From contig JBHLPW010000013.1 of NCBI GenBank assembly GCA_048939015.1, positions 20,607 to 84,606 of the forward strand: a stretch of DNA of 64,000 nt, read 5' to 3'. Numbering within the stretch: the first letter of the stretch is position 1; the number at the start of each line of letters is the position of its first letter. Shown here piece by piece: positions 15,750-63,947 of the stretch. A program made the translations under genes and the position numbers. The notes beneath the pieces are model-generated. The model saw only the letters and a list, made by a program, of their open reading frames with translations, was not told where the DNA came from and ran no database searches. This DNA comes from Promethearchaeota archaeon. Its GTDB lineage: Archaea > Asgardarchaeota > Lokiarchaeia > Sigyniarchaeales > SOKP01.

Positions 15750-16490
15750 ATGAATTTTAATCTCTGTATACCAATACCTATTAAATATTCAAGGATAGAA
15801 CAAGTTAAACCACTCATAGATAAAGCAATAAAATCAAAACCTAATCTAATTGAACTAAGATTTGACTATATTCCTAATATTCAGGCACTTTCAGTAGGTT
15901 TTGTAAAAGATTTATTAAATATTATTGATCCTAATGTTGCTGTTATCTTCACCTTAAGAGACTCATCTGAAGGTGGTAAACTTAAAATAAATCAAAATGA
16001 GCGCTTTAAATTATTGAAAATGTTAATAGAGACTAAACCTGAATATCTTGATATAGAGATGAATACAGAAAACAATTTTCTTGTTGAGATCATCAATTTA
16101 GCAATTCAAAATAAAGTTAAAATAATTTTTTCATACCATAATTTTGAAAATACATTAACTTTCGAAGAATCGATCAAACTCATAAAAGATCTCAATCAAA
16201 AATTAACTCAAGATTTATCCTTAGATTTGATAAATCTTGAAGAAGTTGTTTATAAAGTTATTTTTACAGCTCAAAATTTCGAAGATAATTTAATACCCTT
16301 AAAACTCTGTAAAGATTTCTCTCATTCCAATCAAAAGATCATCTCATTCTGTATGGGAGAATTAGGCATCTTCTCAAGAATCATGTGTGTTCTTACTGGT
16401 TCATTTTTAACTTATACATCTTTAGAAGAACAAACAGCACCAGGACAAATAAATATAAGAAAACTAAGGGAAATCTACAATCTATTATAA
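15750..16490 (+). CDS. aroD: 3-dehydroquinate dehydratase type I
   Basis: IELRFD, FTLR..EGG, SYHNF, FCMGELG..SRI, TAPGQ. Confidence 0.93.
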   Translation: MNFNLCIPIPIKYSRIEQVKPLIDKAIKSKPNLIELRFDYIPNIQALSVGFVKDLLNIIDPNVAVIFTLRDSSEGGKLKINQNERFKLLKMLIETKPEYLDIEMNTENNFLVEIINLAIQNKVKIIFSYHNFENTLTFEESIKLIKDLNQKLTQDLSLDLINLEEVVYKVIFTAQNFEDNLIPLKLCKDFSHSNQKIISFCMGELGIFSRIMCVLTGSFLTYTSLEEQTAPGQINIRKLREIYNLL

Positions 16491-16529
16491 AAGAATCATT
16501 AAATTTAGGCTCTTCTGAAAATGTGAACA

Positions 16530-16627
16530 TTTAATATCATTTTCACATGTATTATCACCCTTTTGAACACACATTTTGTCTGTTTAACCTCACCAGTATG
16601 TATCTCCAGCATTCTTAATATTCCTAA
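16530..16627 (-). pseudogene. Frameshifted remnant of a V4R-like domain gene
   Basis: LGILRMLEIHTGEVKQTKC then, after an extra GT dinucleotide, VQKGDNTCENDIK (ExxC..KGD..CE pattern). Confidence 0.5.
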
Positions 16628-16709
16628 ATAAATATTTTCAATTCAATAATAAATACTCTTTACAAAAAAGTATAAATAATGACCTAATAATAATTATCTT
16701 AATAGGAAA

Positions 16710-16922
16710 ATTTCCAATTTGCATAAAAAAAATGATTAGATCATGATTTAACATTTCCAATTTATATAACAGAAATGATTAGATTATGACTAAAAATATC
16801 CAATTTACAAAAAAAAATGATTAGATCATGATTAAACATTTCCAATTTGCAAAAAAAATGATTAGATCATGATTCAACTTTTCCTATTTACATAAAAAAA
16901 AATGATTAGAACATGATTAAAA
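16710..16922 (+). repeat. Five imperfect tandem copies of a 41-44 bp unit (consensus atttccaatttrcaw-polyA-tgattagatcatgattnaac)
   Basis: Units start at 16710, 16753, 16796, 16838, 16879; the last contains the ATG (16913) of the downstream gene. Confidence 0.92.
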
Positions 16923-19567
16923 ATAAACTTTTGATTAAGGTATTGACATTTTTGATAATAGGCACTATTATAATCCAAATTGCACCACTTCCAACAAATA
17001 ATTATATACAAGCTAAGAGTATAGAGAAAGATAACACCCCGATGAACGAAATTGAGCCACTAGACCTTGGGATTATCCACCTAAATTATAAAGCTGATGG
17101 ATCAATCATGGAGGTAGAAGAAGGTATTAATCAATTAGATTCAGAAACACCCGGTGTTGAATCGGGAGATCATCCATTAGGAATAGATGAAATTCGATTT
17201 ATTCCTAATAATGAATTAGCGTTTGTTTGTCCGGGATTAAGTACAGATTTTTTGAATCTAAATCATGTAGATATCAATCTACTTGAAAATGGAGTTGCTT
17301 CAACCCCTTATCAGGATATGTTGGATGTAAGTTGTAGTTATGACGTTCTAGGAGGACAAGCTGTTGATGCAACAAGTGGAGATGTTGATGGTGATATGAA
17401 AGATGAACTTGTAATAATTGATGAATACGGAAGAGTCCGGATTTATAAATACAATACGACTTTAAAAACGTTTAACATTACTCAATACAATCTAGATATA
17501 GGTGAAGATTCTTATTATTATAGTATTTCTCTGAATCAATTTAATACAGATTCTGGTTTAGAAATCGTAATTGGATGTGGTTGGAGAAGTACAATCCAAA
17601 TCTGGGATCCAGTTAATGCTTTAGGCGATTATTATACCCCAGGTGTACAAACAACTACAAGTGGAAAACCAGGTGGTATTGCTGAGTTCCAAATTACCAC
17701 AGATATTAATCTTTGGGATTATATTATGGATATAGAAACTGGAGATTTTAATGGAAATGGGTTCTGTGATATTGTTACTCTCGATTATAGTGGAAATTTA
17801 GTAGCATTTGAATGTAACTCAGGAGTTATAACCCAATTAGGGAGTAGGGTCGAAATAAGTAATGATGCTCATCAAGGATATCCCATGAATTTCCCAATGG
17901 CTCTTGCTTCCGGAGATTTTAATGGAGATTCTCGGTTAGATATAGCTGTTATGAAGTGTGTTATTAACCCAGGTAGTCCTGAGTATCATTGTGAATTTCA
18001 TTACGTTGAGACTGTTTACTGGAAAGGATTTTCAGCAGGAGGTACTGAATTTGAGAATATAGGTGAAATAGATCTATCAGGTTACAATGTCTTTTACCCT
18101 TCAATTGGAGCGGGTGATATTGATGGTGATGGATTATCTGAAACAGTATTAGTGGGGAAAGGTGGACAAAGTGTTGAAATAGAGTCATGGTGGGTATTGA
18201 TTTTTGATGATTGGGCTATTCCCCAAACATCTCCAATAGTAACCTTTTATGGTGAATCACAATGTCCTTGGGCTGCAAAATCCTTCTCTTTTTCTGATGT
18301 AGATTTGGATGGGATTGATGAAATTTGTTTTTCAAGTGTCGAGAAATATGGACATCTTCAAACTAATTATTATTTAGCACAATTAGAAGGGAGAAATACA
18401 TCTGTAGTTAAAATTAATACAGAAACAAATCCATGGACTGCTACGGTGTTATTTCCAAATGAACTCATAATCGGATATCCAGTTCCAGGAGATTATGATG
18501 GGGATGCGGTTGTAATAGAATATTCTGGTCAACATTTCCCTCGGATAACTCCTCAAATCCCTATTTTTGTGTTGGCAGCACCACCTAATTATTTTGATCT
18601 AAATGGTGAAGGTAGTGGTACTGCTGTATCAAAAGAAGAAACCACTTCAATGGATGTGTCTGAAAGATTTAGTGTTATGGCGGGAATGAGAGTTTCTTTT
18701 GAAACCGGATTTGAATTTTTTGGTACAGGGCTAAAATTTAAAACTAGTTTAGAGGTCAATTATCAATTTTCTCAAACTCAAACTACTACACAAACCGAAA
18801 CGATAGGTGTACGATATTCATCTGGTCATATGGAAAATCAGATCATTTGTGATGCGGTTGACTATGAATCTTATTTATACACGGTAACAAAGCATCCAAA
18901 GTCAGAAATGATAGGAAAAAATATATCAATAGATGTCCCTATAAAAGTATCTATCTATAGTATTACAGAGTCTTTATATAATAGTGCCAATTCTACAAAT
19001 TCCATAGGTTCTGAAACTTATACACATACACCAGGAAAACCTGAAACTTATCCAACTCGAGAAGAAGTAAATGCATTAGAAGGTGTTGTGAAGATTATTG
19101 ACAAAATAGAAGTACCACAGGGGACTGGTACCGCCTGCGGAAGTACATTAAAATATACAAGGGAAAATGCGAAATCTGTTGAAAAGGAACATGCAATGGA
19201 ACTAATTTTCTCAGCGGGTATACAAGCAGGAGGTTTTGGACTTGATGTAAGTGTAGGTTTTGGTGCTGCTTGGGCCAATAAAGTCACTTATGGTGAAAGT
19301 ATGACATACGAGGGTACGGTTGCATGTATCTCCGATGCTAAAGATTGGAGGGACCATAAATTTTCATGGGGTCTCTTTATACAAAATATTGAACCAGATG
19401 AAGGTTTTTCATATCAATTGGTCCACTATTATACTGAAGATGTTCCTAGTGATGGTACTCCTTCCGAAGCAGTTCCAGGTTACAATATAATTTTAGTTAT
19501 TGGAGTATTGATCATTTCACTTATTGTCCTAATATATTTTAAAAAACGAAAAAGTCAGATCTATTAA
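16913..19567 (+). CDS. Secreted, C-terminally anchored FG-GAP/VCBS repeat surface protein with Loki-CTERM-like sorting signal
   Basis: Signal peptide; repeated GDxDGDGxxD/E motifs (GDVDGDMKDE, GDFNGNGFCD, GDFNGDSRLD, GDIDGDGLSE); ends VPGY-TM-KKRK. Confidence 0.85.
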   Translation: MIKNKLLIKVLTFLIIGTIIIQIAPLPTNNYIQAKSIEKDNTPMNEIEPLDLGIIHLNYKADGSIMEVEEGINQLDSETPGVESGDHPLGIDEIRFIPNNELAFVCPGLSTDFLNLNHVDINLLENGVASTPYQDMLDVSCSYDVLGGQAVDATSGDVDGDMKDELVIIDEYGRVRIYKYNTTLKTFNITQYNLDIGEDSYYYSISLNQFNTDSGLEIVIGCGWRSTIQIWDPVNALGDYYTPGVQTTTSGKPGGIAEFQITTDINLWDYIMDIETGDFNGNGFCDIVTLDYSGNLVAFECNSGVITQLGSRVEISNDAHQGYPMNFPMALASGDFNGDSRLDIAVMKCVINPGSPEYHCEFHYVETVYWKGFSAGGTEFENIGEIDLSGYNVFYPSIGAGDIDGDGLSETVLVGKGGQSVEIESWWVLIFDDWAIPQTSPIVTFYGESQCPWAAKSFSFSDVDLDGIDEICFSSVEKYGHLQTNYYLAQLEGRNTSVVKINTETNPWTATVLFPNELIIGYPVPGDYDGDAVVIEYSGQHFPRITPQIPIFVLAAPPNYFDLNGEGSGTAVSKEETTSMDVSERFSVMAGMRVSFETGFEFFGTGLKFKTSLEVNYQFSQTQTTTQTETIGVRYSSGHMENQIICDAVDYESYLYTVTKHPKSEMIGKNISIDVPIKVSIYSITESLYNSANSTNSIGSETYTHTPGKPETYPTREEVNALEGVVKIIDKIEVPQGTGTACGSTLKYTRENAKSVEKEHAMELIFSAGIQAGGFGLDVSVGFGAAWANKVTYGESMTYEGTVACISDAKDWRDHKFSWGLFIQNIEPDEGFSYQLVHYYTEDVPSDGTPSEAVPGYNIILVIGVLIISLIVLIYFKKRKSQIY

Positions 19568-19610
19568 CCTCTAAGTCTTAATTTCTTTTTTTTTTCCTTC
19601 TTATATTGTT

Positions 19611-19715
19611 GGATTTTTTTTAACTTACACTTCCTTAGAAGAAAAGACAGCACCAGGACAACTTAATATCGGAAAAATGAGAGAAATATATGATTTGTTT
19701 CTCAATAACCTTTAG
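19611..19715 (+). pseudogene. Displaced duplicate of the aroD 3' end
   Basis: GFFLTYTSLEEKTAPGQLNIGKMREIYDLFLNNL* vs aroD 16398-16490 GSFLTYTSLEEQTAPGQINIRKLREIYNLL*. Confidence 0.9.
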
Positions 19716-23528: not shown

Positions 23529-24734
23529 ATGGTAGTCTATTTTGGCTTTTTATTTCATATTTATCAACCTCCTGTTCAAATCCCCGCAGTCGTCAAACAA
23601 ATTGTAAATGAATCATATAGACCGATAATTGAAGCTCTGAGAGATCATCCAGAAGCTAAAATTACGTTAAATATTAATGCGACTCTAACTGAACAATTAC
23701 ACGACTTCCAACATGATGATTTAATAGGCGCAATTACAACATTAGCGTCAAGAGGACAAATAGAATTTACAGGTTCGGGTAAGTTTCATCCTTTGCTTCC
23801 CTTAATCCCTGAACCGGAAATTATGCGCCAAATTGAATTAAATAATGAGACTAACAGACATTTTTTTGGTAAGCTATTTAATCCACGCGGATTTTTTCCA
23901 CCAGAAATGGCGGTTTCTGAAGAAGTGTTTAAAACTGTTAAAAAAGCTGGGTTTGATTGGATGATCATGAGTGGAATTGCCAATACTTTACCAGAATTTC
24001 CTACAAACCATATATCAGTACATCCAAATGGCTTAAAGGTATTGTTTAGAGATGATTATACCTCAATTGATTGTGCCTTTGATAAAATTAATAATGTAGA
24101 TGCTTTTGTTTCTCGTTTATATTATAGACACACTTCCGAAGATTATTACGTGATACTTGCCATGGATGGAGAAACTTTTGGTCATCATGTGAAACACGCG
24201 ATAAAGGATTTTCTTATCCCTCTGTTTCAAGTTCTTCCCCACAGAGATGATGTGAAAATCTGCACCATTTCAGAAATCGTAGATAAGTTTCCAAAAGGTT
24301 TCACTCAAATTCCACGTGATTCTAGTTGGTCTACAATGCCCTATGATATCGCTCATGATGTCCCATTCCCTTTATGGTTCGACCCTCAAAATGAAATTCA
24401 TATCGAACAACATAAATTTTTCATGTACGCGCTTACATTAATCCATTTAGCAGCAAAATATCGGGATGGGATGAACGATGATAAAAAAAGAATTTTTGAT
24501 AATGCCAGAAACTTGTTGGATCGTGGAATTCATAGCTGTCAGCAATGGTGGGCTTCTAAACGCCCTTGGTACAGCCCTGATATGATTTTAAGGGGTTTAA
24601 ATGAAGTTTTAATGGCGAGTGTAAATGCAAAGCGCAGTATCCCTGAAGATAATCCCGATATTAAAGATGCTATGGAACTTATTATGGGAGATATGTTAAA
24701 AGCCCAAAATAAAATTGTTCTATCTTTAATGTAA
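23529..24734 (+). CDS. Glycoside hydrolase family 57
   Basis: HIYQP, ESY, HPLLPL, FPPEMA nucleophile, DGETFGHH, SSW. Confidence 0.92.
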   Translation: MVVYFGFLFHIYQPPVQIPAVVKQIVNESYRPIIEALRDHPEAKITLNINATLTEQLHDFQHDDLIGAITTLASRGQIEFTGSGKFHPLLPLIPEPEIMRQIELNNETNRHFFGKLFNPRGFFPPEMAVSEEVFKTVKKAGFDWMIMSGIANTLPEFPTNHISVHPNGLKVLFRDDYTSIDCAFDKINNVDAFVSRLYYRHTSEDYYVILAMDGETFGHHVKHAIKDFLIPLFQVLPHRDDVKICTISEIVDKFPKGFTQIPRDSSWSTMPYDIAHDVPFPLWFDPQNEIHIEQHKFFMYALTLIHLAAKYRDGMNDDKKRIFDNARNLLDRGIHSCQQWWASKRPWYSPDMILRGLNEVLMASVNAKRSIPEDNPDIKDAMELIMGDMLKAQNKIVLSLM

Positions 24735-24791
24735 GAATAAAAAAGAAAAAAAGCATTATTTAGCTAGTACGATTGGGAGACACTGCTAATA

Positions 24792-25139
24792 TTATACATT
24801 TGCAGTTTCAAGAGGTGATTTTTTGAGATTTCCCTCTATCAAATCAAAAATAGCATTCCAAAGGAGTTTTTTAGACTTTTTACCACTCTTTTCATACTCA
24901 ATTTTCAAAATTTTTCCTTCAGATGGATCATCAATAATATGAAAGGTTCCAATAAAATCTTTGCCTGATTTTATTTCAGTTATATTGGATGCAATATTAT
25001 TAATTATCGTCTCTTTTCCAAGAAATTTAAATAAGAATTGACCTCGTAGGCTTTCTAGAAATGCTTCAACTGCGCTGTTAATAACAGTATTAACTAAATT
25101 ATCAGTCCAATCAGGATGACATTTTATAATTTTTGGCAT
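24792..25139 (-). CDS. Hypothetical protein, stand-alone paralogue of the C-terminal domain of 25199-27370
   Basis: IKCHPDW...GTFHIIDD...LKIEYE vs ICHPKW...ATFHIIEE...LQIEWE. Confidence 0.7.
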   Translation of the reverse strand: MPKIIKCHPDWTDNLVNTVINSAVEAFLESLRGQFLFKFLGKETIINNIASNITEIKSGKDFIGTFHIIDDPSEGKILKIEYEKSGKKSKKLLWNAIFDLIEGNLKKSPLETANV

Positions 25140-25198
25140 AGTATTATATGTGTTATTTTATCTTTTATAAAGGTTTAGATTAATAGAAAATCATCGTA

Positions 25199-27370
25199 TT
25201 ATTTTTTCAAGGATTTTATACCTGGTTTTTTAAACAGATCTGTCAATTGGTTAGTAATTCCTTCCCATACTTGTCTTGTCACCGGACTCCTTTCTTCCCA
25301 TTCAATCTGGAGGGTCATTTTCTTCTTACTTTCTTCAATAATATGAAAAGTGGCTTTAAAATTATCACCAGAGGAGATTTCTAACAGGTTTGGTTGCAAT
25401 TCATTACAATTTGTTACAACTCTTTGCCAATTGAGTGAATCTCTAAAAGCGTCAAAAAAAGGTTTTATAAATCCTTTTAAAAAATTCTTAATGTCGTTTG
25501 AATTCCATTTTGGATGGCAAATGATATCTTGTTTTATTTTTCTTATTCCTTGAGTATCTCCATCTTTGACTACCATACCTATAGTTTCCGCCGTTTTACT
25601 TTTAGCTGCTTTAATTAAATCAAGGATGGAGTTTTTTGTTTCTTTCTCTCCAATTATTTCAGCAATCTCACTTGCTTCTTCATATAAATCAACTGCTTTT
25701 TGAAAATTTCCTTGATATTCATTTATCCTTGCTAAATTTGCTAAGCATGCGATTTTTAAACTCGGATTTCCCAACTGTTCAGAGATTTTTAATGCTTCTT
25801 CCATACTTTTCTTAGCTTCCGTATAATTTCTAGATGCTGCATAGATGTTCCCTATATTATTTAGAATAATCCCTTTTGGCTTAAGTAGTCCTAATTTTTC
25901 GGTGATTTTTAATCCTTCAAAATAATGCTTTAAAGCCTCAGAATATTGCTCTTGATTACTGTATAAATCACCAAGATTATTATAATGAGAAATTTGTTTC
26001 TTTAGATCTCCTAATCTTTTATCGATGTTAATTGATTCTTTATACCTTATAATAGCTGCAGGATAATCTTTAATTGCTGTATAAGCTAATGCCATATTAT
26101 TAAAGATGGTAGATTTTAGAGATAAATTACTGGAAATTGTAGGAAGCTCAAAAGCGTCCTCTAATTTTTTTAAGGCTTCTGAATATTTTCCTTGATTTAT
26201 TAAAACTTCTGCAATATCATTGAGTGCAATTGCTTTCCATATATTATACTTTTCTTCATTAGCAATTTGTAGAATTTTTTCACTACTCGTTATTACATTT
26301 GAATATAGATCCAATGTACGGTAGATTCTATTAGGAATATAAAGTTGAGTTAACTCAATGACATCTTGATAAATTTTATAGAGATATTCTTTGATATCCA
26401 AAGAAAAATTTTCATTTCTTATATTAGGTTTCATTTCTAATAATGCTTCTACCATTTCATCTGTGTTTATATTTGTCAGGTATATTTGATTTATATTCTT
26501 CATTTGCCATATTTCAAAAAGAATCTGAGCAACTTTCCTTAAATTCATTTCCAATTTGTCTAAAGATTGAAATGTGTTATCATTAATCTCATATATCTGT
26601 TCTTTTCCCATTTCTATGTTAGGAGTATAATTTATCCATATAATATTCTGTACATTTTTCAATATTTTTAAGGTAGGTACAATATCAAAATCATCACTTC
26701 CAGAATAACCCATTACTATTAAAGAGCGATCTTTTGTGATATTTTCAAATAAAGGGCGTTTAAATGGTTCAAGTTGAAATACATTTTCTCCCTGTTTGTT
26801 TGATCCAAATGCTTGAATCGTGGCAACTAGAGATTCTCTAGTATTTTCTTGAGTTGCAAAATTTTTAGTAGATCCATGTATTTTATACAATGATTTTTTT
26901 CCTTGATTTAACTGCTCATATGGATCTGCAAATTTTTCAAAATCCTCTTTTGTTATTACTGGAACAATCTCCTCAAGAGGTACTCCTGACTGATTTAAAG
27001 CATATTCAATTAAATAATCGAAATTAGTAGTAACAACAAAATTTCCACGTTTTATCATCTCTGATAAGAAAAAATGTTGGATATTTGGCTTATCACATTG
27101 ATCATAGTAATCGATAAGCTTGAGATCTTCATCTAATTGATCTCGAATAATCTCAACTAGAGCTTCAAATCTTAATTTTCCTAATTTCATTAACTCTATT
27201 ATATTATTTATCTCAGATTGAGCACATGTATGATTAATAAGTGCTTTCATCATTGCATATCCTGCTGGAAGACATGAAGGAGCACTGACGGAACAACCTG
27301 CTCCTACTAAAAAAGTACATTTTTGATCGATATTTAACAAATCGTTTATCTTAAGGTTAGTAAGTTTCAT
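25199..27370 (-). CDS. SIR2-like (SIR2_2) domain + TPR repeats + C-terminal unknown domain
   Basis: LVGAGCS, TTNFD, KIHGS, MGYSGSDDFD; TPRs of the NNLGxxY..G.Y.EA type. Confidence 0.88.
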   Translation of the reverse strand: MKLTNLKINDLLNIDQKCTFLVGAGCSVSAPSCLPAGYAMMKALINHTCAQSEINNIIELMKLGKLRFEALVEIIRDQLDEDLKLIDYYDQCDKPNIQHFFLSEMIKRGNFVVTTNFDYLIEYALNQSGVPLEEIVPVITKEDFEKFADPYEQLNQGKKSLYKIHGSTKNFATQENTRESLVATIQAFGSNKQGENVFQLEPFKRPLFENITKDRSLIVMGYSGSDDFDIVPTLKILKNVQNIIWINYTPNIEMGKEQIYEINDNTFQSLDKLEMNLRKVAQILFEIWQMKNINQIYLTNINTDEMVEALLEMKPNIRNENFSLDIKEYLYKIYQDVIELTQLYIPNRIYRTLDLYSNVITSSEKILQIANEEKYNIWKAIALNDIAEVLINQGKYSEALKKLEDAFELPTISSNLSLKSTIFNNMALAYTAIKDYPAAIIRYKESINIDKRLGDLKKQISHYNNLGDLYSNQEQYSEALKHYFEGLKITEKLGLLKPKGIILNNIGNIYAASRNYTEAKKSMEEALKISEQLGNPSLKIACLANLARINEYQGNFQKAVDLYEEASEIAEIIGEKETKNSILDLIKAAKSKTAETIGMVVKDGDTQGIRKIKQDIICHPKWNSNDIKNFLKGFIKPFFDAFRDSLNWQRVVTNCNELQPNLLEISSGDNFKATFHIIEESKKKMTLQIEWEERSPVTRQVWEGITNQLTDLFKKPGIKSLKK

Positions 27371-27464
27371 AAGATTTCTCTATTAAAATATAAAATTTAG
27401 GAGTAATAAGTAAGAGCATTATTTATTTATTATGTTTCTCCTTAAATGTAAAAAAGACAAAACT

Positions 27465-27527
27465 AATGCGATGGAGTTTATTATGGAAGATAAGCTAAAA
27501 GCAAAATACAAGATTGTCTTATCTTAG
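27465..27527 (+). pseudogene. Displaced duplicate of the GH57 3' end
   Basis: NAMEFIMEDKLKAKYKIVLS* vs DAMELIMGDMLKAQNKIVLSLM* (24666-24734); 46/60 nt identical by hand count. Confidence 0.8.
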
Positions 27528-27555
27528 TAAAAATTTAGGTAGGAAAATTTGATTT

Positions 27556-45797: not shown

Positions 45798-45831
45798 GCA
45801 TAATATTGGCAATAGGTACTGTTTTTATTTC

Positions 45832-47667: not shown

Positions 47668-47707
47668 AGTTTAATTTTGATTCTGTTTAATTGAAATTTG
47701 ATTTTTA

Positions 47708-48139: not shown

Positions 48140-48174
48140 ACATTTTCAGTAAAAAATAAGTTTTTTATTTTAAA

Positions 48175-48750: not shown

Positions 48751-48887
48751 GATTATTGGATTTCCTGGAAATTACACTTTTTTGTAATAATTTAATATTT
48801 ATTCCTATTTAAATTTCTTTTAAAAATAATTTAGAGTTAGAGTTTTGATTATTAATAATACGAATGGTAATAACCTACCCATAATCA

Positions 48888-49280
48888 TTACTTTCTTTTT
48901 CCTTTTATCTTTTTTATACTGAACTTTATTTTTCCTAGTTTTATTGTCCCTTTCTTAGATCTTGAACGGGAAGGATAATCCAATTCAATCACATATTTAG
49001 GAGAAAACTGAAAAGATCCAATGATGCCAATCGTAGAGATAAAGGTATACGGTGATGCCGTTATATTTTCCTCAGAATATGTGAAAAATTGCGTTCTTAC
49101 ACATAAAAGACATAATAAGACGAGTGAAAATGGAATAATTATACATTTCAAACTGAGAGTAAGCCATTTAAAATGACCGATAACGTTTAGTTTTATCTCT
49201 CGTAATCGAAATAAATAGGTTAAACCAGCTAAAAGAGAAAGAATAAGACTTAAAACACTACTTATTACAAAAAAGATCAT
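48888..49280 (-). CDS. Hypothetical membrane protein, possibly 5'-truncated
   Basis: Hydrophobic helices; frame open a short way upstream with no start codon. Confidence 0.45.
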   Translation of the reverse strand: MIFFVISSVLSLILSLLAGLTYLFRLREIKLNVIGHFKWLTLSLKCIIIPFSLVLLCLLCVRTQFFTYSEENITASPYTFISTIGIIGSFQFSPKYVIELDYPSRSRSKKGTIKLGKIKFSIKKIKGKRK

Positions 49281-49376
49281 CGTAAATATAAGTTTGAAAA
49301 AAGAATTATAGACTACTTCATTTTATTTTGAATTACATAACGTATCACGAAATTAGAAGTAAAAAATGTTTTAGGG

Positions 49377-50489: not shown

Positions 50490-50622
50490 ATGATTAGATT
50501 TGTAAGTAACATGTTTGTTTCTTTAATATCTCATAAAATCAAACCTTAAATGAAGTAAACTCTTTTTCTCACTTAGAACTCTCTAACACTGGTATTAAAA
50601 ACAAAAAAATGGTAAAACCAAT

Positions 50623-51402
50623 ATGCGAAAAATTGTATCATTCTCAGGAAAAGGCGGAGTAGGAAAATCCACACTTCTTGTTCTTATGCTCAAGTATCTC
50701 CTCGAAAAATTTAAAGATCTCAACATCCTCGTAATTGATGCTGATCCCGATGCTAATATCGGAGACATCATTGGAAAAGAAATTCATTTCAAAGAAACCA
50801 TTGGAGGAAAAATGGCTGAATTTAAACATAAAATCCAAAAAAGACTAATACCTCTAGATGTCTCAAAGGATCAAATCGTCGAATCTGAGGTATTTGATGC
50901 ACTTATTGAAATGGATGATTTTGATATTTTGGAAATGGGACGCGGAGAGGGAAGCGGGTGTTACTGTAGCATCAATAACTATTTGAAACGCATTATTGAT
51001 GTATTAGCAAGAAATTATGATATAGTGCTTATCGACGCTCCTGCAGGGCTGGAGTTTTTTTCCCGAAAAACAGGACAAAATGTCACGGATTTAGTTATCG
51101 TGAGTGATCCTTCTAAAATGGGCATTCACACCATGAAACGCATATTAGAAGTAACCAAGGAGGTCGATTTAAAATTTGAAAATGTCTGGATCCTTGGTAA
51201 CAGGTTTCCAGAAAATTCTTTAAGAGAGATTTTTGAAAAAGAAGTCGTAGGTATCGGAAAAGAATATGTGAAGCTCCTCGGGTTCATCTCAAATGATGAT
51301 GAGATTAGTAAAATGAACATAGTAGGAGAAAACTTATTGTTGTTGCCTAATGAGAGTGTAGCATATAAAACTGGAAAGGAATTATTTGCTAAAATAGTTT
51401 AA
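50623..51402 (+). CDS. cooC: CooC/AcsF-type nickel-insertion ATPase
   Basis: SGKGGVGKST, IDADPD, MGRGEGSGCYC, DAPAGLE..SR. Confidence 0.92.
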   Translation: MRKIVSFSGKGGVGKSTLLVLMLKYLLEKFKDLNILVIDADPDANIGDIIGKEIHFKETIGGKMAEFKHKIQKRLIPLDVSKDQIVESEVFDALIEMDDFDILEMGRGEGSGCYCSINNYLKRIIDVLARNYDIVLIDAPAGLEFFSRKTGQNVTDLVIVSDPSKMGIHTMKRILEVTKEVDLKFENVWILGNRFPENSLREIFEKEVVGIGKEYVKLLGFISNDDEISKMNIVGENLLLLPNESVAYKTGKELFAKIV

Positions 51403-54400: not shown

Positions 54401-55783
54401 CGGATCCTCTATGCTGTTATAGAAATCTTCAAACTCTAAACTCAGTTTTGGATCTTCAATAAAAAAAGATTCATCATACCTATATCCATATTTAGATGAT
54501 AAATCTGCGTTATTCAAGTGATTTCTACAATATTCCAGAATATTCTTATTATCAGAATCGAAAATCTCATCATAATTTTTATTCTTATACTCTCTAAGGA
54601 CTTTATTGAAATTTTCTTTGAGAATTTCTAATATAGTTACGTTTTCGAGTTGTAATTTCTCGATTTCCTCAATTTTCACATCTTTAAATAATGGATTCTT
54701 CAATAAATAGTGAGAACTGTAAGTTAGTATTGTACGTTTGAAATCTTCAGAGTTAAATTCGAGTTCTTTAATTATATTATCTAAAATATATATAATCTTT
54801 CGAAAAATATCTTCTAACTTAATAAGAAAGAGAATTCCTCCATCCTCAATTCCTTCAATAACTTTTTTTATCAATAATTTCTGTTGAATCATGTCAAAAT
54901 TCGAAACGCAGTTTCTTGTTATTTTATCTGATATAGAAATAACAAGAGATTGTTCCAGTAAGTAACATAGATTCTGTGAAATTAGTTCTCTATCATCAAG
55001 ATCCATGGATATTATTAGATTAATTAGATTCTGCACTAAAGGCTGTATCTCTGGATTAAATCTTAGCAAGAAATCATACCAAAAATTAATTTCAAGAAGG
55101 GTATCTATATTGATATTAGAAGCTTCTACCTGATTACTAATTGTATAATCGTCTCTTCTTGCTGAAAACCTTATTTTTAAACTTTTCTCTTCAGAACTAG
55201 TATTTGCTAATATATTTTCTCTCTTTTCAAAAAATTTTAAATATTCTGTAATTCCGTTCTTAAATGAATTGTATATATTATCTCCATTACAAAATACATT
55301 GTAAAAACCTTTCGTAAAACCAATTGCACCCTCATCATTTACTTTCTTTTTAACTCCAATTGAAATGTCAATGATATTTTTTAGTTTTTCAGCTAAATCT
55401 CCCGTGTAACAGGTATTAAAAATGACTAACTTAATGAAATTACTGTATTTATTGATTGTTGAGATAAGATCGAATTCAAGAATATTCGAATTTGTATCTA
55501 AATCATCTCCAGGAAAAACAGCACCTATTTTCTCAACACCATGTCCAACAAAGTGAAGCACTTGAGGACGATATTTTAAAATTCTACTTTTTAATTGATT
55601 TCTCTTGATTGAAAGTGCAGGGATGATTTGAATATAATCTTTATAATTACTTTCCTCGATTAAATCGTAAATTAACTGAAATTCTTCGTTAGATTTCAAT
55701 ATATCCATGTCTTTAATATCTAATCCTAAAAATAGAATTGTAATCTTTTTTCTTTTGGTAGTAAACATTTTCTCTTGAATCAA
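51443..55783 (-). CDS. NLR-like protein: CHAT (caspase-like) protease - STAND/NACHT-like NTPase - leucine-rich repeats
   Basis: LHFVGHG and FNTCYT catalytic dyad; Walker A GHMGLGKT, Walker B LLVFDGFDE, LLTSR; LRRs (IGNLKNLQILDLSNNQLKKLP). Confidence 0.85.
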   Translation of the reverse strand: MIQEKMFTTKRKKITILFLGLDIKDMDILKSNEEFQLIYDLIEESNYKDYIQIIPALSIKRNQLKSRILKYRPQVLHFVGHGVEKIGAVFPGDDLDTNSNILEFDLISTINKYSNFIKLVIFNTCYTGDLAEKLKNIIDISIGVKKKVNDEGAIGFTKGFYNVFCNGDNIYNSFKNGITEYLKFFEKRENILANTSSEEKSLKIRFSARRDDYTISNQVEASNINIDTLLEINFWYDFLLRFNPEIQPLVQNLINLIISMDLDDRELISQNLCYLLEQSLVISISDKITRNCVSNFDMIQQKLLIKKVIEGIEDGGILFLIKLEDIFRKIIYILDNIIKELEFNSEDFKRTILTYSSHYLLKNPLFKDVKIEEIEKLQLENVTILEILKENFNKVLREYKNKNYDEIFDSDNKNILEYCRNHLNNADLSSKYGYRYDESFFIEDPKLSLEFEDFYNSIEDPKTNSRIFLLLGHMGLGKTWNVCFLAFRYVKIFPTFYFHLGSSYESDFLNLFGGFRSPQIEKIVQNFDSQNKKILLVFDGFDELLPDERKKFLNDLTECIKNNPEHLMVLLTSRLVDWINTEEISYNFRHYKQFIYNNDRYTYFDDIRIFTGASYILSDLVDEERLLDINERYGINYSEIQDSRLKKLLKKPFIINLFFRNATNLEDYIFDPEDPEWFRLFADPNNEDTILSRMGIFDNIEKIFQELTCIIADPYDPIPEDDLKDFIKENQYGWNVIFSSGIIKKRRKNFQEEFIFQDEYQKFIEVYISNLIANFHGTDICKADKYWLEILEIELKELGQTIKLQNITDLKEQKSLKGFICNEKGRVIELRLRKSQLPYFPNSIFKLLGLEKLDLKLNKLVRIHKSIGNLKNLQILDLSNNQLKKLPNSLLGLESLRFLNLEGNNIENLDSWWHDFKNLEYVCFYNNTISNKVQDQNPISINFIDDGLNFKDAITPKYFKEKEISQLEYLYIKDAVVINYLNEEKKIHKEITYNFEFDDFRINSLKITNPSSSLKPLFWSLERLGSLELVNRALQFGLNKSIKKLKISVPNKFESIIPLDIHDTISQLKELEFLHIEGFNNIKFPKRLTFLTNIKKLIIDSPKIKNLPLSLLELKIYSHVIINAHSKELEFNNIIENEKSQEPQVLLTYDRYYKISDLTIEENIMNLFISNYQFLSKNFEIKGIIKKLIICPLGRIGRSHFKNEHLWRLSETGNYIFVYEHPGSDIPKIKADFSNLTHFRFEHLQTVNLSEWMLESPNIKKLIITNEGLPQAIQDTFIAENKGLFQLRVKINCKIPEIDNQLKNLTHFQINLPGLNKLPDFISNLSRFKQLIITSKSLDYIWAPFDSPENEYRLLFKVANSCEFPRFLLQMKHLTHVWIDLPDVKKLPPDFELYFIDTKKIKLYRKEDIKNSITEYLKIPDPDYYIIKVHPNCDLPLFDEEILYKE

Positions 55784-55871: not shown

Positions 55872-57218
55872 TTAAAAAAAAACTTTTAATCTAGAATTAG
55901 GTTCATTAAATTTCTTCCAGTCGTATTTTTGTTTAACATCCAATTCTTTCCCTGTTAATTTCTGAAATTCAGCTATAATATAATCCTGAAACTCTTCATA
56001 GTTTAATGTGTGCGGGACGGTAATTAGGACAACATTGTATTGTTTGCACAATTCCATCTTGACTTTGTCCCGTTCTTGTTGTTTAACAAAATCCTTGTAT
56101 TTCCTATGGTACTTAGGATATAAAACATAATGTTGCGGTCCGTTAAACTCGAATGCTAACCTCAATTTTTCATTATATCCGTCAAGATGCATCTGTCCCC
56201 CACTAAATGGGTTCACTAACCATTCAGGACGTTCTTTAGGAAAGCTTGCTTTAAAAATACGTTCAAAAAAGCCTCGACACACTTGCTCTCCTTCCCCCTC
56301 TGTACAAGTAGGACACCACTGAGGACGTCGAACGTGAGTTATATCCATCTCAAAAGTATTCTCACATTTTCCGCACTTCCACTTGAATTTATAATGGCTG
56401 GGATCATGAGCTTTAAGATATTCCTCTTTACTTGATAAAAATTCTCCCTCATACCCAGTTTTAATAATCCCGATTCTTTTTGCCAATTCTAAGATTTTAT
56501 TATATGGAGTGCGGAATTTACGGGAAAGAAGGGAATATTGACAATTTCTGCACCATGATCCTGATTTTATATTTCTGGCTGTTGCCTCCCAGATATTACC
56601 ACATTTTCCACATTTCCAATGATATTTGCTCATATCGGGATGTTTGGATGTTTCATAGTCCTTCTTACTCGTTAATAATTTTCCCTCAACACCAGTTTTT
56701 TCTAAACCCCGTGTTTTAGCAAGTTCAAGCATCTGTTTATATGTCCATGTCTCCCGTCCTTGACAACGAAGGCACCATTGCTTCCGATAGAGAACTGCAT
56801 TCGGCGAGGTATTCCATATCTTTCCACACTTTCCGCATTGCCATTTAGAAGAGACATTCAATCCTTTAAACTCTTCTGAAATAAATTTCCCAGCTACTCC
56901 TGTTTTTTCCATCCCTACAATTTCAGCTAATTTCTCCATGGAGTGTTTGTCATAAGTATTTCTGCATTTAATCTCTTTCACCTGAAGTGAAGCATTAACT
57001 TCCTCAGCTAATTTTTTGAATTTCTGGAAACTTTTTTCGGGAATAGAAGAACCCTTATTTAGAACATTTCCAATAAAAAATTCAATCTCTTTACTGATAG
57101 TTTCTTGGGATAATCCTTTCTCAGTTTTCAATAATAATACAATACGACGAACCTTCTCAGGCTTTAATAGATACCGCTTCGTTATGACTCGTATATCATC
57201 CAAACTTTCACTAACCAT
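55872..57218 (-). CDS. Zn-ribbon repeat protein with C-terminal Vsr / PD-(D/E)XK-like endonuclease domain
   Basis: Three W.CGKC...WC..C repeats; E..CR..FERIF, LDGYN...AFEFNGPQHY, D..K. Confidence 0.8.
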   Translation of the reverse strand: MVSESLDDIRVITKRYLLKPEKVRRIVLLLKTEKGLSQETISKEIEFFIGNVLNKGSSIPEKSFQKFKKLAEEVNASLQVKEIKCRNTYDKHSMEKLAEIVGMEKTGVAGKFISEEFKGLNVSSKWQCGKCGKIWNTSPNAVLYRKQWCLRCQGRETWTYKQMLELAKTRGLEKTGVEGKLLTSKKDYETSKHPDMSKYHWKCGKCGNIWEATARNIKSGSWCRNCQYSLLSRKFRTPYNKILELAKRIGIIKTGYEGEFLSSKEEYLKAHDPSHYKFKWKCGKCENTFEMDITHVRRPQWCPTCTEGEGEQVCRGFFERIFKASFPKERPEWLVNPFSGGQMHLDGYNEKLRLAFEFNGPQHYVLYPKYHRKYKDFVKQQERDKVKMELCKQYNVVLITVPHTLNYEEFQDYIIAEFQKLTGKELDVKQKYDWKKFNEPNSRLKVFF

Positions 57219-59225: not shown

Positions 59226-59453
59226 CTACTCTTCTTTTTCCAACTCTTTTAAATTTTCTTCAAATCTCTGATATCCATTTACTTTTTTTTTGGAAATATT
59301 GGTTTTAGAAACAAATCTTTCAGTAGTAGATTCAGTCGCAAATTTAACCTTCATAAATTTCTTTATCGCAACTCTATATTTCTCCCTTTTACTTTTTGTT
59401 ATCCGAACACTCACAAAGTCCGACTCCTCCCCAAATTTCCGCTTCCTCACCAT
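59226..59453 (-). CDS. Small ribbon-helix-helix-like DNA-binding protein (copy 1)
   Basis: RKRKFGEESDFVSVRITKSKREKYRVAIKKF; paralogue of 60712-60954. Confidence 0.65.
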   Translation of the reverse strand: MVRKRKFGEESDFVSVRITKSKREKYRVAIKKFMKVKFATESTTERFVSKTNISKKKVNGYQRFEENLKELEKEE

Positions 59454-59654
59454 GTCATCCCGTCTCTTTCTTCCGATTCCTCACCTAAACTGCTATTGCA
59501 AATATCTTACACCTCGGATTTTTAGACTTCACAATCAGTCCAAAGACCCCCAAATATTAAAAAAATTAATTGTACTGACATTCAAAACTATATGATTTTG
59601 GGTGATCCAGCAGCTTGTTTTAGAATTCCAGCAAATCAATAATGAAATACATAA

Positions 59655-62405: not shown

Positions 62406-63302
62406 ATGATCGAAGATACACATAAAATAAAAAACGAGACCGATCTTAAAAATCAATATAGTAGAGCTCTAGACTTGTTAGAATCAGAGATATTGGATAA
62501 ATTAATGCCTCTTCTGTTAAAAGGTAAATCGAAAAAGGAAAAAAAAAAGCAGCTTGAAATTATTGGGAACATTCTCAATGGACCTAAACACCAAATATAT
62601 ATGAATGCTCTAGAAAATGGATTAATAGATGAAAAAGATTTAGAAGCTATAGCAAATTGGACTGAATGTCGTTTTACTCTCTTATTTCCAAACAAACAAC
62701 CCAAGAAATTTGAAAAACTGAACATGCATCTTCTAAAAAAGGATCTTATAGAAATAGCTAATTTGAGAAAAAAAGTGAAAACTTTTTCACCAACTTTAGA
62801 CGGCTATTTAGAAATGCTTTATAAAATCATTAAGCGTGAATATATTAGGCGATGCGAAGCATATCCTCTTAAATTAATAGAGAACGACCTAATTAAAACA
62901 GCTAAAATATTTAAACTAAAAAGAAAAATGCTTATCGAATTATTGATGAAAAAGTACTCAGACATACTCATTATGAACCAGGAATTAAAAGGTGATGAAT
63001 CTCATAAATATCAACTGCTTGTATCAATTCCATCATTAGAGAAAAAAATTCGTACATTTAATGCTGGTATTGATATCTTGTCTGAATCTAAAATGCAAGA
63101 TATGGCGGTTCCTGACTATACATTCAGAAATATACTCATTTCTAAAATGGAAGAAATAATAAGGTGTCCTGCCTGTGGAGAAGAAAGTATGAATGTTATT
63201 CAAGTAGTTGAAGACAAATCAAATATAATCCTTGATTATCCACGCGTTTATGGGAAGAAATATCGATGTGGACGATGTGGACAAGTATGGCGAGAAAAAT
63301 AG
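62406..63302 (+). CDS. Hypothetical protein with C-terminal Zn ribbon
   Basis: CPACG...EDKS...YPRVYGKKYRCGRCG. Confidence 0.75.
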   Translation: MIEDTHKIKNETDLKNQYSRALDLLESEILDKLMPLLLKGKSKKEKKKQLEIIGNILNGPKHQIYMNALENGLIDEKDLEAIANWTECRFTLLFPNKQPKKFEKLNMHLLKKDLIEIANLRKKVKTFSPTLDGYLEMLYKIIKREYIRRCEAYPLKLIENDLIKTAKIFKLKRKMLIELLMKKYSDILIMNQELKGDESHKYQLLVSIPSLEKKIRTFNAGIDILSESKMQDMAVPDYTFRNILISKMEEIIRCPACGEESMNVIQVVEDKSNIILDYPRVYGKKYRCGRCGQVWREK

Positions 63303-63356
63303 TACAAATATCTTTTAATTTATAGAATTTTCTTCCTTAGAAATCAACTTCTTCCA

Positions 63357-63470
63357 ATCCAAATTTTTAACCTCCCAAATTATCCAAAGTCACCTAAAAT
63401 AGCGTATCACGAAATTCCAATACCATATCACGAAATCCCTTCTGTATCTTTGTAACATTATACGAAAGTG
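63357..63470 (+). repeat. Conserved non-coding module (copy C): two TATCACGAAAT repeats 21 bp apart plus ATTATACGAAAGTG; probable element end
   Basis: Repeats at 63405-63415 and 63426-63436; 14-mer at 63457-63470; 30 bp before the cooC fragment. Confidence 0.75.
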
Positions 63471-63500
63471 GACGAACCCCTCACAAAATACAAAAAAAAA

Positions 63501-63947
63501 GGATGCTATTGCAGTATCAATAATTATTTGAAACGCATTATTGACATACTAGCGAAGAATTATGAAGTCGTACTTATAGATGCTCCTGCGGGATTGGAAT
63601 TTTTCTCCCGAAAAACAGATCGAAATGTGACCGATTTAGTTATTGTAAGCGACCCAAGTAAAATGGGAATCCATACCATGAAACGCATATTAGAAGTAAC
63701 CAAAGAAGTCGATTTAAAATTTGAAAATGTCTGGATCCTTGGTAATAGGTTCCCAGAAAACTCCATAAGAGATATATTAGAAAAAGAAGTAGAGCAAATT
63801 GGTAAAGAATATGTAAAGTTCCTTGGTTTTGTCGAAAATAGCGATGAAATTAGTAGAATTAATATTGTAGGAGAAAATCTTTTAGATCTATCAAATGAAA
63901 GTAAACCATATAAAACAATAAAAGATTTATTTGCTAAGATAGTTTGA
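63501..63947 (+). pseudogene. cooC: 5'-truncated duplicate of cooC (3' 447 nt)
   Basis: Colinear, same length as 50956-51402, starts exactly at GCYC; lacks the Walker A half; the track's MDEPLTKYKKK leader is non-homologous. Confidence 0.9.

Follow-up and report, generated by a model that had tools for sequence, protein, structure and literature searches.

Four genes in the stretch of DNA analyzed here (the window, 64,000 nucleotides, from an Asgard archaeon of the Loki type) raise the same question. The genes for type I dehydroquinase (aroD), a GH57 glycoside hydrolase, ribosomal protein S2 (rps2) and a cooC-type maturation ATPase are each intact, and each is followed by 1–12 kb of cargo and then by a start-less, same-strand copy of its own 3′ end. 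What process leaves a second gene end behind accessory cargo, and which of the two ends belongs to the genome? The original prediction was a general route of homology-facilitated illegitimate recombination (HFIR), in which DNA from a relative enters by homologous recombination in the gene and an illegitimate join near its 3′ end. We compared the window with the rest of its genome (G000, a metagenome bin with 6.5% contamination), with the closest relative of that genome (G052) and with 54 genomes of the genus. All four pairs lie where they had been predicted, and when the window was searched against itself in six frames, the four tails were the only C-terminal fragment matches for aroD, GH57, rps2, and cooC.

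Table 1. Genes, cargo and orphan tails at the four sites, in window coordinates
Feature	Position	Strand	Evidence or remark
aroD, type I dehydroquinase, in-use copy	15750..16490	+	Pfam DHquinase_I, 2e-47
FG-GAP cassette	16573..19620	+	Pfam FG-GAP; gene at 16913-19567
aroD orphan tail, codon 217 to stop	19611..19715	+	native remnant
GH57 glycoside hydrolase, in-use copy	23529..24734	+	Pfam Glyco_hydro_57
SIR2-TPR cassette, 2.72 kb	24736..27456	-	Pfam SIR2_2 and TPR
GH57 orphan tail, from codon 377, old and decaying	27456..27531	+	tblastn, 65% over 23 aa
rps2, ribosomal protein S2, in-use copy	43815..44624	+	Pfam Ribosomal_S2
rps2 cargo, 283-aa membrane-like protein	44829..45680	+	Pfam, weak matches only
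rps2 orphan tail, from codon 243	45717..45803	+	in-frame stop
Five-gene block, HAD gene to cooC, absent from G052	46643..50560	-	synteny
cooC-type maturation ATPase, in-use copy	50623..51402	+	Pfam AAA_31/CbiA/ParA; tail from codon 113 foreign
STAND NTPase with LRR, 1446 aa, defense-like	51443..55783	-	Pfam
Zinc-ribbon protein P0121, 448 aa, homing-endonuclease-like C-terminal domain (predicted)	55872..57218	-	DUF4379 zinc ribbons (Pfam)
Small gene X in cooC cargo	59290..59595	+	repeats D3, D9; six-frame matches
27-nt stretch just upstream of cooC orphan	63443..63469	+	same place in L061 element
cooC orphan, codons 112/113-259, open frame	63501..63947	+	native remnant

The two copies of each tail are 70–83% identical, and their longest exact runs (15, 9, 19, and 38 nt) fall at different positions; the repeat-pair alignments contained no core or motif common to the four sites and no identical att core. 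At cooC, aroD, and GH57, silent sites are saturated and dN/dS is about 0.07. The aroD pair spans 31 codons with eight amino acid differences (dN/dS 0.07, dS 1.6), the cooC pair 147 codons (63504–63947) with 92 nucleotide and 23 amino acid differences (dN/dS 0.07, dS 1.5), and the GH57 pair 23 codons (377–399, at 27456–27524) with 19 nucleotide and eight amino acid differences, plus one 3-nt indel further on. Many of the differences at aroD, GH57, and cooC had been described as synonymous or conservative; the amino acid changes at GH57, where silent sites are saturated, are mostly nonconservative. Low dN/dS between the tails, the check proposed against simple duplication and decay, was found at three of the four sites and in most of 15 further tail pairs (median 0.15).

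At cooC, the proposed comparison of upstream and downstream tail trees placed the orphan as sister to the G052 tail (UFBoot 98) and the in-use tail, as a foreign sequence, on a long branch. Nucleotide identity to G052 is 85% for the orphan (dS 0.83) and 75% for the in-use tail. The orphan lies at the end of contig C77 (window position 64000). The last 76 nt of C77 match the beginning of contig C74 except at one position, which places the orphan against its native convergent neighbor, a DUF4130 gene on C74. A donor search through 5.8 billion proteins returned a top identity of 88% for the in-use tail, and the donor lineage is therefore unsampled. At aroD, judged against 12 relatives, the in-use gene ends in an atypical NLL* and the orphan retains the canonical ...DLFLNNL* end. 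The aroD orphan, its downstream flank and a 389-aa gene are 89% identical to, and collinear with, the aroD tail and neighbor of G052, where the site is empty; a relative with an empty site had been predicted to match the downstream tail in this way. Both orphans adjoin their ancestral neighbors. Given the cooC tree, the aroD C terminus and flank, and the low dN/dS, we conclude that upstream tails were imported and downstream tails are native: at cooC and aroD, the orphan is the native end and the in-use tail is foreign.

A foreign in-use tail had been predicted for rps2 as well, and there the data do not bear it out. Codons 243–269 and the orphan differ at seven nucleotides, an in-frame stop among them, both tails carry the lineage-specific residue PMY, and rps2 of relatives without the cargo ends like the in-use copy. 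The orphan adjoins a HAD hydrolase gene, which directly follows rps2 in four relatives. The 283-aa cargo gene (80% amino acid identity) and the orphan are also present in G052; the insertion predates the G000/G052 split. Duplication followed by decay fits rps2 as well as gene-end replacement does, and a very close donor may also account for it.

The cooC cargo includes a candidate homing nuclease, P0121. The nuclease domain had no match in Pfam or in phmmer searches against the PDB, and Foldseek on the nuclease model gave weak matches only. For the C-terminal domain of the AF2 model (pLDDT 77), the best PDB match by VIA-align was the catalytic domain of I-Bth0305I (Z 8.1, a value at which a fold match may still be generic; rmsd 2.9, 96/98 residues), followed by Vsr (Z 6.8). 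Homologues of P0121 stand convergent at the cooC stop in four other assemblies (L061, L059/L060, and G017), 12–18 nt from it in G017 and L061. In G000, the gene is 4.4 kb from cooC, separated by the inserted STAND gene, which the L061 element lacks. Members of the family are present in 28 of the 54 genomes of the genus, with many broken copies, and its subfamilies are each tied to a single host gene (cooC, smc, and two others); a P0121 paralogue heads the smc island.

L061 is a second lineage that shares the element backbone with G000, including the 27 nt before the orphan (blastn of L061 against the window matches 63357–63949), and its cooC orphan starts at the same place, codon 113 in the CxC motif (112/113 in G000). 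In the L061 cooC tree, the head groups with G004 (95), the orphan with G004/G007 (84), and the in-use tail elsewhere (85); the in-use L061 gene is a chimera with discordant head and tail trees. The codon-112/113 boundary could be the cut site, or it could have been inherited with the element's relic. Ser116 is encoded by AGC in the three in-use alleles linked to the nuclease; the two orphans and most element-free alleles have AGT. This hints that the nuclease may spare its own allele. An arbitrary breakpoint left by random HFIR, as originally predicted for cooC, does not fit the same codon in an independent lineage, a shared backbone, and a nuclease-like gene. A candidate homing endonuclease encoded by the element most likely drives the cooC event, through gene conversion like that of the WHO elements discussed below. 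In the tree of cooC heads, the head of the in-use G000 gene has no firm place, and its 5′ third may be native or imported. The head does not group with G052 and the nuclease gene lies at a distance from cooC, so the whole in-use cooC, perhaps with five upstream genes, may have come in together, and one-ended recombination would therefore fit better than clean homing. Homology to the G052 intergenic region ends at about 46642, and the five-gene block beyond it arrived either by an insertion of its own or as the left part of the import at cooC.

No integrase or transposase was found by Pfam in any cargo ORF of the window or of 17 further sites (∼45 cargo proteins). The four PF00589 tyrosine recombinases of G000 are on other contigs, away from any site, and a search of the genome for PF16795 gave no match. 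The earlier statement that no recombinase accompanies any site stands for integrases and transposases, but it needs amending for cooC, whose cargo contains the homing-endonuclease-like gene and a nonspecific endonuclease gene. For aroD, GH57, and rps2, neither the cargo, nor that of the relatives, nor the DNA up to 9 kb from GH57 in 79 loci contained a nuclease gene. The nuclease-domain profile matched none of the ORFs of 79 GH57/aroD loci and showed no similarity by hhalign to the 115-aa, 155-aa, and 283-aa cargo proteins; the ESM Atlas gave no lead for the 115-aa and 155-aa proteins. An endonuclease gene directly behind the rebuilt 3′ end, with P0121 as the candidate nuclease, is thus a feature of cooC only. 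Cargo at ∼20 sites is heterogeneous and consists of everyday genes without mobility genes. A diversity-generating retroelement was also considered and rejected because the cargo holds no reverse transcriptase and the mismatches are of all kinds, not adenine-specific.

The FG-GAP cassette at aroD, in which five 42-nt repeats (16689–16924) lie ahead of the gene, is absent from G052 and is 86% identical over 3.07 kb to a cassette in G035 (L031:4222-7216). The G035 copy has a head fragment of GH57 on one side and an orphan aroD tail on the other, and is joined at different breakpoints. At the right junction with aroD in the window, the 5-nt TGGAT is common to the cassette end (as in G035) and to aroD codons 216–217. 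The SIR2-TPR cassette at GH57 carries genes for 723-aa (25199–27370) and 115-aa (24792–25139) proteins and has defined ends, with CTTTTTTA at each. It is found with the same ends, the left one to the nucleotide, and the same junction in G035 and G036, which have orthologous GH57 orphans at the same DKTNAM junction. GH57 orphan breakpoints range widely across genomes (codons 162 to 378), and orphan starts for aroD, too, differ between genomes. G035 and G048 have a second GH57 orphan behind a 184-aa gene; no counterpart was found in the window, and a chimeric in-use GH57 switching at codon 377 was rejected because the gene stays G052-like over its whole length, including the tail. In G052 and G005, the SIR2-TPR cassette has the same ends, again with the left one exact to the nucleotide, on the opposite side of GH57 and in opposite orientation. 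Neither of these two contexts can be derived from the other by a single inversion or crossover, and a cassette with the same left end in both is cleanly explained by neither a homing nor an HFIR model.

The count of orphan tails across the genome, proposed with the original prediction, gave 23 such sites with 81 kb of cargo in total, and the process recurs at the same genes across the genus. Tail fragments downstream number 56 against 27 head fragments upstream. The claim that four cases in 64 kb point to a major mode of genome growth was correct about frequency but overstated the density, which is about one site per 210 kb.

We interpret these sites as scars of gene-end replacement, probably left by a homing element at cooC and by recombination with an illegitimate join at aroD, GH57, and rps2. 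DNA from related Lokiarchaeia would recombine into a conserved gene, where the donor version would overwrite the recipient's 3′ part and bring along whatever accessory genes followed it in the donor. Downstream, beside its original neighbor, the displaced 3′ end of the recipient would be left without a start, and repeated events would stack cargo and old tails. The cooC unit would consist of the 3′ part from codon 113, the convergent zinc-ribbon nuclease gene, cargo, and the cooC relic; the nuclease would cut element-free cooC near the CxC codons, and the break would be repaired from an element-bearing copy with the gene body as one arm and the relic as the other. For aroD, GH57, and rps2, the best reading is homologous recombination with an illegitimate or relic-templated join: founding events would combine homologous recombination in the gene with a microhomology join, and the units could later spread through ordinary homologous recombination in which the stranded tail supplies the second arm of homology. 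A wider view, which we hold tentatively and consider rather doubtful, is that conserved Lokiarchaeia gene ends serve as landing pads that are themselves portable. A unit of new tail, cargo, and old tail would first be founded by a homing nuclease or an infrequent illegitimate join, and ordinary recombination would then pass it on; with the two tail copies as homology arms, any cargo between them could move between species, and defense and accessory genes would pile up at housekeeping genes.

Under HFIR at all four sites, linear DNA from a relative would be anchored by homology in or upstream of the gene and its far end joined illegitimately within the recipient's copy; no enzyme encoded by an element would take part, and the cooC nuclease-like gene would be mere cargo. 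This reading would account for the TGGAT microhomology and the other breakpoints of that cassette in G035, for the variable orphan starts of GH57 and aroD, for varied everyday cargo without mobility genes at ∼20 sites, and for foreign DNA in G000 that may begin 4 kb upstream of cooC, and it has been invoked for a published analogue, the Vibrio T6SS arrays (PMC5361080). We nevertheless consider it unlikely. Against it stand the same cooC boundary and backbone in an independent lineage and a nuclease family tied to specific host-gene ends in many genomes, with the decay pattern of homing genes. A strong excess of tails over heads is not what it predicts, and in bacteria it is orders of magnitude rarer than homologous recombination (reviewed in PMC5361080). 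As the general route originally proposed, it probably does not extend to cooC, and its direct support comes from one junction, FG-GAP/aroD, where a donor sequence was available for comparison. Local duplication of the gene end during an unrelated insertion, followed by decay and with no foreign tail, suits rps2, given the shared PMY, the seven differences with a stop codon in the orphan, and the cargo-free relatives that end like the in-use copy. As an account of the sites in general, we give it little credence: the silent sites and dN/dS of cooC, aroD, and GH57, the median of the 15 further pairs, and a cooC orphan that stays open over 147 codons despite 92 substitutions and is sister to a working G052 gene all speak against it.

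Integrative elements served by a site-specific recombinase in trans, with the replacement tail as part of the attachment site (CIME-like accretion), are hardly credible here. Replacement of gene 3′ ends is typical of such elements, G000 does encode four tyrosine recombinases elsewhere, the SIR2-TPR cassette has defined ends, and the tandem arrays of cargo and tails look like accretion at an att site. Against this stand the zero integrases among ∼45 cargo proteins, the lack of a conserved core (longest exact runs of 9–38 nt at differing positions), breakpoints that vary between events at one gene, repeats that are diverged orthologous coding sequence (dS 1.5) and not identical att cores, and an orphan that is native over its entire length. 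An assembly artifact, with bin contigs switching between co-occurring strains or species at conserved genes, is extremely improbable, despite the contamination of the bin and the position of the cooC orphan at a contig end. Orthologous orphans with the same junctions occur in independent assemblies (rps2 in G052; GH57 in G035, on a 1.05-Mb contig, and in G036; cooC in L061), the C77/C74 overlap is clean, and a graph switch would not give an abrupt start-less tail behind unique cargo.

The preferred reading, gene-end replacement, has a close parallel in the WHO elements at FBA1 of Torulaspora and Lachancea yeasts (Coughlan et al. 2020, PMC7282813; Osborne et al. 2026, 10.64898/2026.08.13.744650). 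As we propose for cooC, these pair an endonuclease gene with a new 3′ portion for an essential host gene, move the old 3′ part downstream as a fragment that serves as the second homology arm, form arrays by repeated events, and leave discordant host-gene 5′ and 3′ trees. Here, however, the host is an archaeon without meiosis, the nuclease is not a LAGLIDADG enzyme but a multi-zinc-ribbon protein with a Vsr/EDxHD-like domain predicted from its fold, its gene and the host gene converge, the element brings as much as 12 kb of unrelated cargo (STAND NTPase, nucleases, phosphoesterase), and three of the four sites are without a nuclease gene. The mORFs of fungal mitochondria form gene hybrids with a duplicated C terminus (Beaudet et al. 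2013, PMC3630166). They too place a free-standing endonuclease ORF at the 3′ end of a conserved gene with a foreign in-frame C terminus and the native one behind, but they belong to organelle genomes, use LAGLIDADG or GIY-YIG enzymes and have essentially no passenger genes. Paquin and colleagues reportedly described an mORF case at Allomyces atp6 in 1994. Gene-end homing of the WHO or mORF kind has so far been published for yeasts and fungal mitochondria, and the predicted nuclease makes it likely that it also occurs in an archaeon. I-Bth0305I, the founding member of the EDxHD homing endonuclease family (Taylor et al. 2011, PMC3239194), shares a Vsr-like core with the P0121 C-terminal domain, whose best structural match it is, at 16% identity. 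Its EDxHD motif is not evident in P0121, where E..E, LDGYN, and EFNGPQH are conserved, and it sits in a phage group I intron, whereas in P0121 the domain is part of a free-standing protein with three or four zinc ribbons.

Other parallels lie among bacteria. Integrating elements such as ICESt1/ICESt3 at fda rebuild the 3′ ends of protein or tRNA genes, with CIME accretion. As here, incoming DNA supplies the 3′ end, the gene stays intact, the displaced end becomes the far repeat, and accretion is in tandem; unlike here, those elements depend on a recombinase of the tyrosine or serine type and on short att cores that are identical. C-terminal displacement in Rhs/CdiA, as it is summarized in a later paper (Jackson et al. 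2009, PMC2935791, via PMC5361080), and the sequential displacement of Vibrio cholerae T6SS effector-immunity modules, for which HFIR without an integrase was proposed (PMC5361080), also proceed by recombination via a conserved 5′ region, turning the old 3′ region and its companion genes into downstream orphans and building arrays. Those ends are nonhomologous toxin domains under diversifying selection; ours are orthologous housekeeping ends under purifying selection, and any benefit would lie in the cargo.

Asgard archaea have large, gene-rich genomes and poorly known routes of gene uptake, and their published mobile elements are viruses, plasmids, integrase-bearing islands, and aloposons (PMC11529989, PMC8813620). 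The sites described here record an integrase-free route at base-pair resolution, as datable and countable scars (23 in this genome) that recur across a 54-species genus, and the cooC site associates this route with a new gene family that is free-standing and homing-endonuclease-like and has subfamilies specific to particular host genes. Should the predicted cutting hold true, these nucleases would be natural cut-and-rescue drives on essential genes and a source of enzymes with long recognition sites. Were the landing-pad view true, it would describe an integrase-free counterpart of integrons and a substantial route by which the archaeal relatives of eukaryotes turn over their accessory genomes. 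Orphan tails also mark the polarity and relative order of transfers and the foreign part of a "housekeeping" marker gene, which matters to phylogenies built from such genes.

The cooC cargo itself holds a fifth, nested case. The tail of gene X recurs at 60831–61092 and 63358–63435, and its copies bracket an Endonuclease_NS gene (59655–60536) and a Metallophos gene with a 298-aa gene (61264–63302), as assigned by Pfam.

The window occupies the final 64 kb of contig C77 in a metagenome bin (4.86 Mb, 29% G+C, 95% complete, 6.5% contamination; genome G000), which protein matches assign to Lokiarchaeia/Promethearchaeota (Asgard archaea) and which we compared with 54 congeneric species genomes. Comparison of the window with itself in six frames, together with local alignments of its DNA, confirmed the four predicted pairs of an intact, in-use gene (aroD, GH57, rps2, or cooC) and an orphan, a start-less same-strand copy of its 3' end lying beyond a block of cargo. 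In all four, homology begins abruptly within the gene and is lost at most ~50 nt past the stop codon, and a fifth case is nested within the cooC cargo, where the tail of the small gene X is repeated twice. The low dN/dS expected of tails that diverged as functional orthologs was found for aroD and cooC; silent sites are saturated in GH57, and the ratio is not informative in rps2. These pairs are best explained if recombination with congeners replaced the ends of the genes.

Coordinates of gene/orphan pairs and other features (window positions unless a contig is named; cargo assigned by Pfam scans)
Feature	In-use part	Position of orphan or feature	Details	Cargo
aroD pair	codon 217 to end	19611-19715	31 codons; dN/dS 0.07	FG-GAP surface protein
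GH57 pair	codons 377-399	27456-27524	19 nt/8 aa differences	SIR2-TPR protein, 115-aa protein
rps2 pair	codons 243-269	45717-45803	7 nt differences, one creating a stop	283-aa membrane-like protein
cooC pair	codons 113-259	63504-63947	92 nt/23 aa differences, open frame; dN/dS 0.07	STAND NTPase-LRR protein, zinc-ribbon protein, non-specific endonuclease, metallophosphoesterase, small unknown proteins
Gene X	59290-59595	60831-61092, 63358-63435	repeated tails	
Zinc-ribbon protein		55872-57218	448 aa	
Five-gene block 5' of cooC		46643-50560		
C77/C74 overlap		63924-64000	last 76 nt of C77 = C74:1-76	
42-nt repeats		16689-16924	five, tandem	
SIR2-TPR cassette ends		24736, 27456	both carry CTTTTTTA	
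Adjacent minus-strand paralogs		12286-13656	202/224 aa, 61% identity	
Adjacent minus-strand paralogs		27915-30857	376/561 aa, 64% identity over C-terminal 224 aa	
Small paralogs		38849-40185	three in tandem: 122, 127, 129 aa	
Inverted cooC, genome G017		C35 9751-13997 (L019)		
degT-like/110-aa gene pair		C12:129544-136623 (L043)	degT-like protein 411 aa	4.7-kb ABC-exporter cassette

In the relatives, rps2 is followed by cooC and the DUF4130 gene, and aroD, at a separate place, by GH57; we took this order as ancestral, and in many species the genes are directly adjacent. The nearest of the 54 genomes, G052 (protein identity 96% for GH57 and 95% for rps2), is an empty site for the FG-GAP insertion behind aroD and lacks the cooC cargo, which shows the cooC event in G000 to be recent. 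At both genes, the G052 tail matched the orphan rather than the in-use copy, as the original prediction had anticipated. The G052 cooC tail is 85% identical to the orphan (dS 0.83) but only 75% to the in-use tail, and a maximum-likelihood tree placed orphan and G052 as sisters (UFBoot 98), with the in-use tail on a separate long branch. The G052 aroD body aligns with in-use aroD, and the final 100 nt of the G052 gene, the spacer behind it, and the gene that comes next match the orphan and its 3' flank at 89%; the aroD C terminus of all relatives, DLFLNNL, is kept in the orphan, and the in-use copy is four residues shorter. The rps2 insertion is common to G000 and G052, a lineage-specific PMY is present in both tails, and the orphan adjoins the gene for a HAD hydrolase, which in four relatives comes after rps2; these sequences appear compatible with both a close donor and a local duplication and do not separate them. 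Because the GH57 orphan lies at the same junction in two other genomes (G035 and G036) and in-use GH57 is G052-like to its last base, this event is evidently old and little informative.

Strain-chimera contigs could in principle produce such orphans, and the assembly breaks directly behind the cooC orphan, at the contig end. Arguing against this, other species, assembled independently, have orthologous orphans at these junctions, in one case on a contig of 1.05 Mb, and the overlap of C77 with contig C74 is clean (one mismatch in an A/T run, same orientation). The cooC orphan therefore adjoins the DUF4130 gene, the convergent cooC neighbor in all relatives. Gene-end import from relatives by recombination is supported, as the original prediction had it; its claim that the blocks are integrase-free also held, as Pfam scans of the cargo found no integrase, transposase, or reverse transcriptase, and the four tyrosine recombinases of G000 are all away from these sites. 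What did not stand is an enzyme-free route, homology-facilitated illegitimate recombination, as one general account: it is compatible with aroD, GH57, and rps2 but not favored at cooC, where a homing-type nuclease is preferred.

No nuclease-like protein was found in the aroD, GH57, and rps2 cargo of the window or in the relatives' cargo at these genes, which holds response regulators, HTH proteins, a histidine kinase, and a CAAX protease instead; likewise, a nuclease profile had no match within 9 kb around GH57 at 79 Lokiarchaeia loci. The same cassettes are bounded by different remnants in different genomes: in G035, the FG-GAP cassette has 270 nt more of its end, with a GH57 head fragment on one side and a shorter aroD orphan on the other, and in G052 and G005 the SIR2-TPR cassette lies upstream of GH57 in opposite orientation. 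The FG-GAP/aroD join has a 5-nt microhomology, and orphan starts vary (aroD codons 171, 217, 217, and about 224; GH57 162 to 378; rps2 231 and 243). These features fit founding events of homologous recombination plus one putative illegitimate join, a model put forward to explain T6SS arrays in Vibrio and Rhs loci (PMC5361080). One such join would create a unit of new tail, cargo, and old tail. Both ends of this unit would be homologous to any empty allele, so that it could spread by ordinary recombination; this homology would explain why junctions are conserved between species. At the three genes, the best explanation would be homologous plus illegitimate or relic-templated recombination. Outside this account, the SIR2-TPR left end is nucleotide-identical in two different contexts. 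In genome G053, the SIR2-TPR cassette is present without this left end and without an orphan. Each 42-nt repeat, just 5' of the FG-GAP gene, has the palindrome ATCATGAT inside AATGATTAGATCATGATT, and three of them recur at the equivalent place in G035 (L031:4400-4520). The repeats resemble a series of regulator binding sites, carried along with the cassette.

At cooC, we consider it likely that the island is a homing-type element whose predicted nuclease drove gene-end replacement. The zinc-ribbon protein has a paralog as the first gene behind smc, another tail-replacement site, and a conserved domain (E..E, LDGYN, EFNGPQH) makes up its C-terminal 150 residues. Among 48,161 PDB representatives, the top match of its AlphaFold model (pLDDT 77) was the I-Bth0305I catalytic domain (Z 8.1, rmsd 2.9, 96/98 residues), followed by a Neisseria endonuclease-like protein and Vsr; a homing-endonuclease-like fold is probable, though a Z near 8 can be generic, and cooC is its putative target. 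Homologs converge on cooC in G017 and GCA_048941405.1 (L061), at 12-18 nt from its stop; at L059 and L060 one gene intervenes, and in G016 and G050 broken remnants lie at the cooC end. Members of the domain family are present in 28 of the 54 genus genomes, many copies being stop-containing fragments, and each subfamily is tied to the end of a single host gene (cooC, smc, or those at C105:42552 and C122:15840). Homing endonuclease genes typically form host-site-bound subfamilies with many decayed copies, and the common broken copies and single host-gene end per subfamily thus argue for homing behavior.

L061 shows the full layout of in-use cooC, predicted nuclease, cargo, and orphan (codons 113-259) adjoining the DUF4130 gene. 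Its in-use head groups with G004 (support 95), its orphan with G004/G007 (84), and its in-use tail elsewhere (85), a 5'/3' discordance like that of FBA1 in WHO-bearing yeasts (PMC7282813). Although L061 and G000 are separate lineages, both orphans start at codon 112/113, at a CxC motif, and the two elements have the predicted nuclease in common, along with an X-like segment and 27 nt directly 5' of the orphan. The G000 element is, on this comparison, the same backbone enlarged by the STAND gene and nested insertions, and the codon-113 boundary may be inherited with the element relic rather than re-made at each cut. Because the tree does not group the G000 cooC head as native and the five-gene block 5' of cooC is also missing from G052, the import may exceed a clean conversion tract. 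In G017, the zinc-ribbon nuclease gene separates cooC from rps2, relative to which cooC is inverted, and GH57 is inverted within a 14-kb island bounded by GH57 head and tail fragments, which suggests that such events could invert the host gene.

This architecture resembles WHO elements (PMC7282813; 10.64898/2026.08.13.744650) and fungal mitochondrial mORFs (PMC3630166), and its array logic resembles Rhs and T6SS displacement (PMC5361080). A limited literature search found no archaeal description. New here are the zinc-ribbon/Vsr-like family of predicted nucleases, whose subfamilies are specific to host genes, versions of the element that are large and laden with cargo, the occurrence of nuclease-bearing and nuclease-free sites within the same 64 kb, and a count over the whole genome. 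For that count, tblastn searches with all ORFs, each against its own contig, gave 56 same-strand downstream matches to C-terminal fragments and 27 upstream matches to N-terminal fragments, ~3 of these short and highly similar. After paralog removal, 23 genes had orphan tails, smc and degT among them, with 0.8-12 kb of cargo each (81 kb in total, 1.7% of the genome) and a median dN/dS of 0.15 over 15 measurable pairs. Their cargo is of an ordinary accessory kind, comprising ABC exporters, TetR, methyltransferases, a NosD-like surface protein, Fe-S proteins, a PAS kinase, and a peptidase.

At the degT-like site, two convergent genes bound the cassette and the tail of each recurs on its opposite side, as if insertion had duplicated a single segment covering both gene ends. 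The two minus-strand paralog pairs of the window were rejected as orphan tails, being tandem duplications. The three small tandem paralogs, zinc-ribbon-like in the relatives' annotation, keep their order across the genus.
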